Both the position numbers and the translations under genes were made by a program. Under the pieces are notes generated by a model. The model was not told the origin of the DNA and searched no databases. It worked only from the letters and a program-made list of their open reading frames with translations. This document shows, piece by piece, positions 52,266-58,353 of a stretch of 64,000 nt of DNA (position 1 is its first letter; every line of letters begins with the position of its first letter). The stretch lies in NCBI RefSeq assembly GCF_048403405.1, contig NZ_CP183129.1; one strand, 5' to 3'. The DNA comes from Escherichia coli. Its GTDB lineage: Bacteria; Pseudomonadota; Gammaproteobacteria; Enterobacterales; Enterobacteriaceae.

Positions 52266-52344
52266 GCCCACAAATTTGAAGTAGCTCACACTTATACACT
52301 TAAGGCACGGATGGATATTGCTTCTGATATTGTCCGGCCGGACA

Positions 52345-52373
52345 ATGTTACCGATAACAGTTACCCGTAACAT
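52345..52373 (+). promoter_or_regulatory. GntR operator sites in gntK promoter
   Basis: atgttaccgataacagttacccgtaacat, two overlapping palindromic half-site pairs resembling the GntR operator. Confidence 0.55.
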
Positions 52374-52403
52374 TTTTAATTCTTGTATTGTGGGGGCACC
52401 ACT

Positions 52404-52931
52404 TTGAGCACGACTAACCATGATCACCACATTTACGTCTTGATGGGCGTATCGGGCAGCGGCAAATCTGCGGTCGCCAGTGAAGTGGCGCATCAACTTC
52501 ATGCCGCGTTTCTTGATGGCGATTTCCTCCATCCGCGCTGCAATATCGAAAAAATGGCGTCTGGCGAACCGCTGAATGACGACGATCGCAAACCGTGGTT
52601 GCAGGCGCTGAACGACGCCGCGTTTGCTATGCAGCGCACTAATAAAGTGTCGCTGATTGTCTGTTCCGCACTGAAAAAACACTATCGCGACCTGCTACGC
52701 GCGGGTAATCCGAATCTCTCTTTCATCTACCTGAAAGGCGATTTTGATGTGATTGAAAGCCGCCTGAAAGCGCGCAAAGGCCATTTCTTTAAAACCCAAA
52801 TGTTGGTGACGCAGTTTGAAACGCTGCAGGAGCCGGGTGCGGACGAAACTGATGTACTGGTGGTAGATATCGATCAACCGCTGGAAGGTGTTGTGGCAAG
52901 CACCATTGAGGTTATTAAAAAAGGCAAATAA
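52404..52931 (+). CDS. gntK: Gluconokinase GntK
   Basis: Walker A GVSGSGKS; product starting STTNHDHHIYVLMG implies a TTG start at 52404; 175 aa. Confidence 0.8.
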   Translation: MSTTNHDHHIYVLMGVSGSGKSAVASEVAHQLHAAFLDGDFLHPRCNIEKMASGEPLNDDDRKPWLQALNDAAFAMQRTNKVSLIVCSALKKHYRDLLRAGNPNLSFIYLKGDFDVIESRLKARKGHFFKTQMLVTQFETLQEPGADETDVLVVDIDQPLEGVVASTIEVIKKGK

Positions 52932-52934
52932 GTA

Positions 52935-54275
52935 GTGACTACATTAACGCTTGTTTTAACAGCAGTAGGGTCTGTTTTACTGCTGCTGTTTTTAGTCATG
53001 AAGGCGCGTATGCACGCTTTCCTGGCTTTGATGGTGGTGTCCATGGGGGCTGGCCTTTTTTCCGGTATGCCGCTCGATAAAATCGCAGCGACGATGGAAA
53101 AAGGGATGGGAGGCACCCTCGGCTTCCTGGCGGTGGTTGTCGCCCTGGGAGCTATGTTTGGCAAGATCTTACATGAAACTGGCGCAGTCGATCAGATTGC
53201 CGTCAAAATGCTCAAATCCTTCGGTCACAGCCGCGCGCATTATGCCATCGGCCTTGCGGGGCTGGTCTGTGCGCTACCGCTGTTCTTTGAAGTGGCGATT
53301 GTTCTGCTGATTAGCGTTGCTTTCTCAATGGCGCGCCACACCGGTACGAACCTGGTGAAGCTGGTAATCCCATTATTCGCAGGCGTGGCGGCCGCGGCGG
53401 CATTCCTGGTACCGGGGCCAGCGCCAATGCTGCTGGCATCGCAGATGAATGCCGACTTTGGCTGGATGATCCTGATTGGCCTGTGTGCGGCAATTCCGGG
53501 AATGATTATTGCCGGGCCGCTGTGGGGTAATTTCATCAGCCGCTACGTGGAGTTGCATATTCCTGACGACATCAGCGAACCACATCTCGGTGAAGGCAAA
53601 ATGCCGTCCTTCGGATTCAGCCTGTCGCTGATCCTGTTGCCACTGGTGCTGGTGGGGCTGAAAACCATTGCCGCGCGTTTTGTGCCAGAAGGCTCTACCG
53701 CTTACGAATGGTTCGAGTTTATTGGTCATCCGTTTACCGCGATTCTGGTTGCTTGTCTGGTGGCGATTTACGGCCTGGCGATGCGTCAGGGTATGCCGAA
53801 AGATAAAGTGATGGAAATTTGCGGTCACGCGCTGCAACCGGCGGGGATCATTCTGCTGGTGATTGGTGCAGGCGGCGTGTTCAAACAGGTGCTGGTTGAC
53901 TCTGGCGTAGGTCCGGCACTGGGCGAAGCGTTAACCGGCATGGGCCTGCCGATTGCCATCACCTGCTTCGTGCTGGCCGCTGCAGTGCGCATCATTCAGG
54001 GGTCTGCAACCGTTGCCTGTTTAACGGCGGTGGGACTGGTGATGCCGGTTATTGAACAACTGAACTACTCCGGTGCGCAAATGGCGGCGCTGTCGATTTG
54101 TATCGCCGGTGGTTCGATTGTTGTCAGCCACGTTAACGACGCCGGTTTCTGGTTGTTCGGTAAATTTACCGGCGCGACTGAAGCCGAAACGCTGAAAACC
54201 TGGACCATGATGGAAACCATCCTCGGCACTGTCGGTGCCATCGTTGGGATGATTGCGTTCCAGCTGTTGAGTTAA
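52935..54275 (+). CDS. gntU: Low-affinity gluconate transporter GntU (GntP family)
   Basis: 446-aa multi-TM ORF; operon order gntRKU. Confidence 0.9.
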   Translation: MTTLTLVLTAVGSVLLLLFLVMKARMHAFLALMVVSMGAGLFSGMPLDKIAATMEKGMGGTLGFLAVVVALGAMFGKILHETGAVDQIAVKMLKSFGHSRAHYAIGLAGLVCALPLFFEVAIVLLISVAFSMARHTGTNLVKLVIPLFAGVAAAAAFLVPGPAPMLLASQMNADFGWMILIGLCAAIPGMIIAGPLWGNFISRYVELHIPDDISEPHLGEGKMPSFGFSLSLILLPLVLVGLKTIAARFVPEGSTAYEWFEFIGHPFTAILVACLVAIYGLAMRQGMPKDKVMEICGHALQPAGIILLVIGAGGVFKQVLVDSGVGPALGEALTGMGLPIAITCFVLAAAVRIIQGSATVACLTAVGLVMPVIEQLNYSGAQMAALSICIAGGSIVVSHVNDAGFWLFGKFTGATEAETLKTWTMMETILGTVGAIVGMIAFQLLS

Positions 54276-57759: not shown

Positions 57760-58353
57760 TTACCCCTTCATCCACATTCGAATCCCGTCGAGGAACATCT
57801 GGGTTGCCATCATCACCAGAATCAATCCCATCAGGCGTTCAAGTGCATTCACCCCTTTCTCGCCCAGCAGACGTAAAAATAGCGAAGACTGTAGCAGGAT
57901 GACAAAGGTGCCGCCCCAGGCCAGTAGCAGAGCAATTACCAGATGTCCCATCTGATTCGGGTACTGATGAGACAACAACATCAGCGTGGCGAGAATAGTC
58001 GGCCCGGCGACTAACGGAATTGCCAACGGCACGATAAACGGCTCTTCACCTGCCGGAAGCCCGCTGCTATTTCCTGAAGCACTGGGGAAAATCATCTTAA
58101 TGGCGATCAGAAACAGAATGATGCCGCCAGAAATGGAGACGGTTTCTGCCCGCAGGCTAAGAAATGCCAGAATTTTCTCACCCGCAAACAGGAACACCAG
58201 CATCACCAGGAGAGCAATAAGCAACTCTCGCACCATGATTGCCCGCCGTCTTTTCGGTTCAGTATGTTTCAGTACGGACATGAAAATAGGTAGGTTTCCG
58301 AGCGGATCCATAATCAGGATCAATAAAACTGCTGCAGAAATGATTTCATTCAT
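57760..58353 (-). CDS. yhgN: MarC-family inner membrane protein YhgN
   Basis: 197-aa multi-TM ORF; synteny next to asd. Confidence 0.85.
   Translation of the reverse strand: MNEIISAAVLLILIMDPLGNLPIFMSVLKHTEPKRRRAIMVRELLIALLVMLVFLFAGEKILAFLSLRAETVSISGGIILFLIAIKMIFPSASGNSSGLPAGEEPFIVPLAIPLVAGPTILATLMLLSHQYPNQMGHLVIALLLAWGGTFVILLQSSLFLRLLGEKGVNALERLMGLILVMMATQMFLDGIRMWMKG

Follow-up and report, generated by a model that had tools for sequence, protein, structure and literature searches.

The window, a stretch of 64,000 nucleotides of Escherichia coli DNA, contains the GntI locus with the gene order gntR-gntK-gntU, and its open reading frames there agree with the RefSeq annotation of the identical region. 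The question that concerns us is the codon at which translation of gntK, the gluconokinase gene, begins; the features that bear on it lie between a putative CRP-binding site and the start of gntU, as follows.

52272-52293, no strand assigned: putative CRP-binding site, AAATTTGAAGTAGCTCACACTT, with a TTTGA-N6-TCACA core (52275-52290) that is invariant in a 23-species alignment (A2); the function is assigned from the CRP consensus.
52318-52346, plus strand: putative gntK promoter, with a -35 hexamer TTGCTT (52318-52323), a 17-nt spacer and a -10 hexamer GACAAT (52341-52346), both hexamers conserved in alignment A2.
52345-52373, no strand assigned: two overlapping GntR operators of the ATGTTA-N4-TAACAT type, ATGTTACCGATAACAG and CAGTTACCCGTAACAT, forming a near-invariant block in alignment A2.
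52377-52379, plus strand: in-frame TAA that closes the gntK frame upstream, from direct sequence reading.
52383-52385, plus strand: upstream in-frame TTG, not a start codon, with no Shine-Dalgarno element and in an indel-rich, non-conserved spacer.
52392-52396, plus strand: Shine-Dalgarno element GGGGG, 7 nt 5' of TTG 52404, from its predicted duplex with the 16S 3' end.
52404-52406, plus strand: gntK start codon TTG (UUG), read as fMet, from the RefSeq annotation, the comparison of 80 species and the parsimony changes.
52404-52931, plus strand: gntK coding sequence, 175 codons plus TAA, thermoresistant gluconokinase, from the NF008583 equivalog and the alignment to PDB 1KNQ.
52935-52937, plus strand: gntU start codon GTG, 3 nt after the gntK stop, from the RefSeq annotation.

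Direct reading of the plus strand places a TTG at 52404-52406, and the codons that follow it (AGC ACG ACT AAC CAT GAT CAC CAC ATT TAC GTC TTG ATG GGC) translate as STTNHDHHIYVLMG (S-T-T-N-H-D-H-H-I-Y-V-L-M-G), which bears out the claim of the original prediction that the conserved GntK N-terminus begins at this codon. The same prediction went astray over the competing start: it had taken 52383 for the only in-frame ATG, and the codon at 52383-52385 in fact reads TTG. The gntK frame can be extended 5' by exactly seven codons, to 52383, before it meets the TAA at 52377-52379, and between that stop and 52404 there is no in-frame ATG; the alternatives are therefore two TTG codons, and an ATG does not enter into the choice. 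Not until 52443 does the frame contain an ATG, as codon 14 (Met14, the M of ...VLMG), adjoining the P-loop. A mechanical list of the open reading frames in the window gives an ORF of 182 aa that begins at TTG 52383.

The reference annotations already contain the TTG start of gntK, which is in that sense known. RefSeq places the start at the codon equivalent to 52404 in strain 104 (the RefSeq strain identical to the window over the gntK start region), in K-12 RP437 and in MG1655 (NP_417894.2), in each case with a gene of 528 nt and 175 codons; that NP_417894 stands at version.2 presumably hints at an earlier revision of this start. The K-12 gene (b3437, NP_417894.2; PDB 1KNQ, 1KO1, 1KO4, 1KO5, 1KO8 and 1KOF) shares with the window the TTG start, the 175 residues and the gntR-gntK-gntU order. 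The two sequences are identical from the GntR operators to codon 15, and their promoter, leader and start regions differ only by two substitutions upstream of the operators; the GntK proteins differ by two amino acids, R46C (52539-52541) and E100A (52701-52703) in the window relative to K-12 and 1KNQ. Residues 1-175 of the window protein match 1KNQ chain A with E = 2.3e-113 and 2 substitutions. The proteins of the solved structures, 1KNQ and the five others, have 175 residues and the N-terminus MSTTNHDHH, and for the seven additional residues of the longer ORF 1KNQ offers no counterpart. The earlier statement that the residues read from 52383 (M/L-YCGGTT) are missing from the K-12 protein is thus correct, and it extends to 1KNQ. 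As the protein in the PDB was produced recombinantly, its N-terminus follows the annotated start and does not prove it. The family models, for their part, both place the TTG-started protein above their curated cut-offs: with the NCBIfam equivalog NF008583 it obtains 373.1 bits (cut-off 265), position 1 of the profile falling on residue 1, and with TIGR01313, which begins at residue 11, it obtains 238.9 bits (cut-off 113.75). The Walker A P-loop (GxxGxGKS type), GVSGSGKS, occupies residues 15-22.

The start region is nearly universal within the species. A 331-nt region around the gntK start is found in 5,424 of 5,426 complete E. coli genomes, and 5,417 of them contain an exact copy of the 33-nt segment that comprises the Shine-Dalgarno element, the TTG and codons 2-6. 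As to published start-site data, no gntK entry was found in the part of the supplement text available for three E. coli studies (TRAINSPOTTER, INRI-seq and tetracycline-inhibited ribosome profiling), and full-text literature searches on the TTG, start or initiation codon of gntK returned nothing relevant. In 1996 and 1997 Izu et al. reportedly purified the enzyme and mapped transcripts.

Further downstream, between gntU (which ends at 54275) and yhgN (57760-58353, minus strand), the window carries a two-gene PsyrTA (RqlHI) toxin-antitoxin or anti-phage cassette (54413-57714, plus strand). PsyrT is a protein of 699 aa with RecQ-like helicase domains (PADLOC PDLC03928, 1068 bits) and PsyrA is a DprA-like ORF of 431 aa (PDLC03927, 667 bits). 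As listed the two ORFs overlap by 94 nt, and, since the PsyrA profile begins at residue 32, the real start of PsyrA is probably later than the listed one. Strain 104 agrees with the window in the rest of the gntK region but has yhgN directly after gntU, which makes of PsyrTA a strain-variable insertion.

With respect to ribosome binding, the GGGGG element at 52392-52396 is predicted to pair with the 16S 3' end at -8.4 kcal/mol (among random 20-nt windows, 8.7% pair at -8 kcal/mol or better), and the end of the duplex lies 6 nt from TTG 52404. The 20 nt before TTG 52383 give +0.5 kcal/mol, that is, no Shine-Dalgarno element, and those before ATG 52443 give -1.0 kcal/mol, again with none. From the presumed transcription start to codon 13, the leader folds less stably than 196 of 200 shuffled sequences (z = +1.68), and this weak folding fits an accessible gntK initiation region. 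Two other elements of the leader were considered and set aside. One is a hairpin, GUGG(GGGCA)CCAC, that partly covers the Shine-Dalgarno element and might have acted as a regulator; it has 4 bp only, it is not conserved in Salmonella, Klebsiella or Kluyvera, and the leader as a whole has the z of +1.68 just given. The other is a five-codon mini-ORF (52390-52407, plus strand; GTG GGG GCA CCA CTT TGA), whose TGA at 52405-52407 overlaps the gntK TTG, as though it were a coupling device; it is without a Shine-Dalgarno element of its own, the frame of its GTG differs in Salmonella, and we judge it to be there by chance.

To place the start in a wider phylogenetic context we have employed one scan of species-representative genomes, which furnished 80 Enterobacteriaceae gntK loci with 90-99% protein identity. 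The codon aligned to 52404 is TTG in 76 of the 80 and ATG in the other four; it is never GTG, CTG or a non-start codon. Taken with the identity of the 33-nt segment throughout nearly all E. coli, the presence of TTG or ATG at this position in 80/80 species argues that the combination of Shine-Dalgarno element and TTG is more than a chance arrangement. The four ATG genes belong to two Buttiauxella, to Yokenella and to Trabulsiella. They have the same N-terminus (MSTTNHD...), the same Shine-Dalgarno placement and the same upstream GntR operators as the window, and differ from it in starting with ATG where the window has TTG; in orthologues with an ATG at precisely this position, nature itself supplies evidence that initiation takes place there. 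The alignment of upstream regions across enterobacteria for Shine-Dalgarno spacing, which had been proposed as a check, also turned out in favor of 52404: a Shine-Dalgarno-like element (GGGGG, GGGAGG or AGGAGG) is present in 80/80 species, with dG from -5.6 to -11.8 kcal/mol, and in 76 species 4-7 nt separate the end of the predicted duplex from the start codon.

On the coding side, GntK residues 2-14 are conserved as protein in the 80 species while their codons vary synonymously, and conservation of the protein begins at codon 52404. This pattern, which covers residues 2-13, tells heavily against an initiation at ATG 52443 that would turn the N-terminal 13 residues into an untranslated leader. 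Such a start has in its favor that 52443 is the sole in-frame ATG near the 5' end, but we find it scarcely credible: besides having no Shine-Dalgarno element before it, it would remove the HIYVLM that immediately precedes the P-loop, and these residues are within the family profiles (TIGR01313 from residue 11) and the solved structure.

Upstream of 52404 the comparison gives a quite different picture. The 23-species alignment shows a conserved order, namely CRP-type site, TTGCTT, GACAAT with the operators, an unalignable spacer, the Shine-Dalgarno element and the start codon, and its indels fall exactly over the region with TTG 52383. Among the 80 species the distance from operator to start ranges from 20 to 153 nt and falls into all three mod-3 classes; the spacer between the operators and the Shine-Dalgarno element cannot be coding. 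There are in-frame stops at -21 or -24 in 19/80 species, and in 36/80 an upstream in-frame ATG, GTG or TTG is missing entirely. These observations weigh directly on the proposal that translation begins, either wholly or as a minor second isoform, at TTG 52383, which would yield a protein of 182 residues with the extension MYCGGTT-L. That codon is after all a permitted start, in frame and 3' of the stop at 52377; if transcription starts near 52354 it is probably within the mRNA, the A/U-rich sequence before it could in principle allow loading independent of a Shine-Dalgarno element, and a TTG occurs at -21 in 14/80 species, mostly Escherichia and Citrobacter. However, the extension would have to be translated through the actual Shine-Dalgarno element while having none of its own, the segment that contains 52383 shifts frame between genera, the extra residues have no match in the family profile or the PDB, and the codon is used by none of the annotations of strain 104, RP437 and MG1655. 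We therefore regard initiation at 52383 as very improbable, and the 182-aa call of the longest ORF is wrong.

Not all leaders of the family resemble that of E. coli. In ten Klebsiella/Raoultella loci (L021, L026, L027, L030, L031, L033, L040, L041, L044 and L062) the 45 nt that immediately precede gntK bear no relation to the E. coli leader, and GGGAGGA serves as a stronger Shine-Dalgarno element. Moreover, in 11/80 loci the GntR operator lies 74-87 nt from the gntK start instead of 20-45 nt, and the Klebsiella/Raoultella genera are presumably among these. In this lineage the gntK leader appears to have been remodelled with the TTG start retained.

With the RefSeq annotation, the 175-residue solved protein, the placement of the Shine-Dalgarno element and the comparative genomics all in agreement, we conclude, as the original prediction had it, that gntK starts at TTG 52404, and we would put at about 95% the probability that translation from this UUG gives the known 175-residue gluconokinase MSTTNHDHH....

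As for how such transcripts arise, GntR-type operators are present upstream of gntK in 80/80 species. In the window the GACAAT and the two overlapping operators together read GACAATGTTACCGATAACnGTTACCCGTAACA (52341-52373), and that these motifs are GntR operators we take to be established knowledge (Tong et al. 1996; Peekhaus & Conway 1998). A strict consensus promoter scan did not call the gntK promoter, which was delimited instead by phylogenetic footprinting in the 23-species alignment; from its hexamers we infer a transcription start near 52353/52354. The operators span this position, and counted from it the putative CRP site is centred at -71.5. In reporter assays PgntK is strongly repressed by GntR (PMC13386637). 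Given the two conserved operators, the conserved CRP site and this repression, gntK expression is inducible and not constitutive. The modest constitutive expression that had been offered as the rationale for a non-ATG start consequently falls away, and constitutive expression cannot explain the weak start codon.

Combining these elements, the leader would be transcribed from a GntR-repressed promoter with a CRP site, starting near 52354; the GGGGG at 52392-52396 would then position the 30S subunit 7 nt 5' of the UUG, in a weakly structured leader, and the initiator tRNA would decode UUG 52404 as fMet in an ordinary Shine-Dalgarno-directed initiation. The in-frame TTG 52383 would be there by chance, in the non-coding stretch that separates the GntR operators from the Shine-Dalgarno element. 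A well-known case of a start codon with a regulatory role is infC, whose AUU start serves autoregulation through IF3; gntK differs in that evidence for a dedicated regulatory loop on the start codon is absent. It is closer to the ordinary UUG-initiated genes of E. coli, in which a near-cognate start is likewise read by the initiator tRNA with a Shine-Dalgarno element at normal spacing, and in comparison with these there is nothing unusual about gntK. About 3% of E. coli genes have a UUG start, and the efficiencies of AUG, GUG and UUG starts together range over 10-100% of that of AUG (bioRxiv 10.1101/063800).

There is nevertheless the matter of why a weak codon should have persisted. When the 80 genes are placed on a neighbour-joining tree, the gntK start requires 2 parsimony changes at its first base, in both cases from T to A. 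For the 47 four-fold degenerate sites in gntK the mean is 15.2 changes and the median 15, and only 1/47 changed as rarely as the start T, which has thus changed some 7 times less often than these sites. Since the codon would remain a working start with either A or G in first place, roughly 10 changes (about two thirds of the four-fold rate) would be expected there if the choice of start codon were neutral. The second cistron of the operon has a similar bias: the gntU start is GTG in 62/80 species, TTG in 18/80 and ATG in none. In the 80 species (loci L003-L082) this start is often found to overlap the gntK stop or to lie directly against it (GTGA, TAGTG), an arrangement that suggests translational coupling. 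Within the first ~20 codons of gntU there is also a hairpin resembling an intrinsic terminator (52960-52995, plus strand; CAGCAGTAGGGTCTGTTTTACTGCTG then CTGTTTTTAG), and the same motif occurs in Kluyvera (L054); we presume that it may be the known attenuator between gntK and gntU.

Either of two readings could account for the rarity of change at the start codon. One is that non-AUG starts are actively maintained in both gntKU cistrons across the Enterobacteriaceae, so that the weak UUG, retained by selection, would limit GntK translation per transcript; the output of both the kinase and the low-affinity transporter from each message would be capped, and strong switching would take place at the level of transcription, through GntR and CRP. 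The other is that TTG 52404 is indeed the start, with a conservation devoid of regulatory meaning, an adequate start codon having been neutrally retained. Start codons evolve slowly in general, four species have switched to ATG without other visible change in gntK, and the strength of UUG can amount to a considerable part of that of AUG (bioRxiv 10.1101/063800). Against neutral retention stand the 2 changes at the first base where roughly 10 would be expected, and the neighbouring gntU start, which is also never ATG in the 80 species. We would give active maintenance about an even chance of being right, and hold neutral retention to be a serious contender at slightly under evens.

Beyond correct annotation, the significance of the gntK TTG start is small; the point that needed correction is that the upstream ATG does not exist, and the locus offers a clean comparative demonstration of a start site. 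Only mildly new is the observation that gntK and gntU appear to have kept their non-AUG starts under selection. Nevertheless, the weak starts of both operon genes, kept over the divergence of the family, may offer, on a small scale, a testable case of selection acting upon the strength of start codons.
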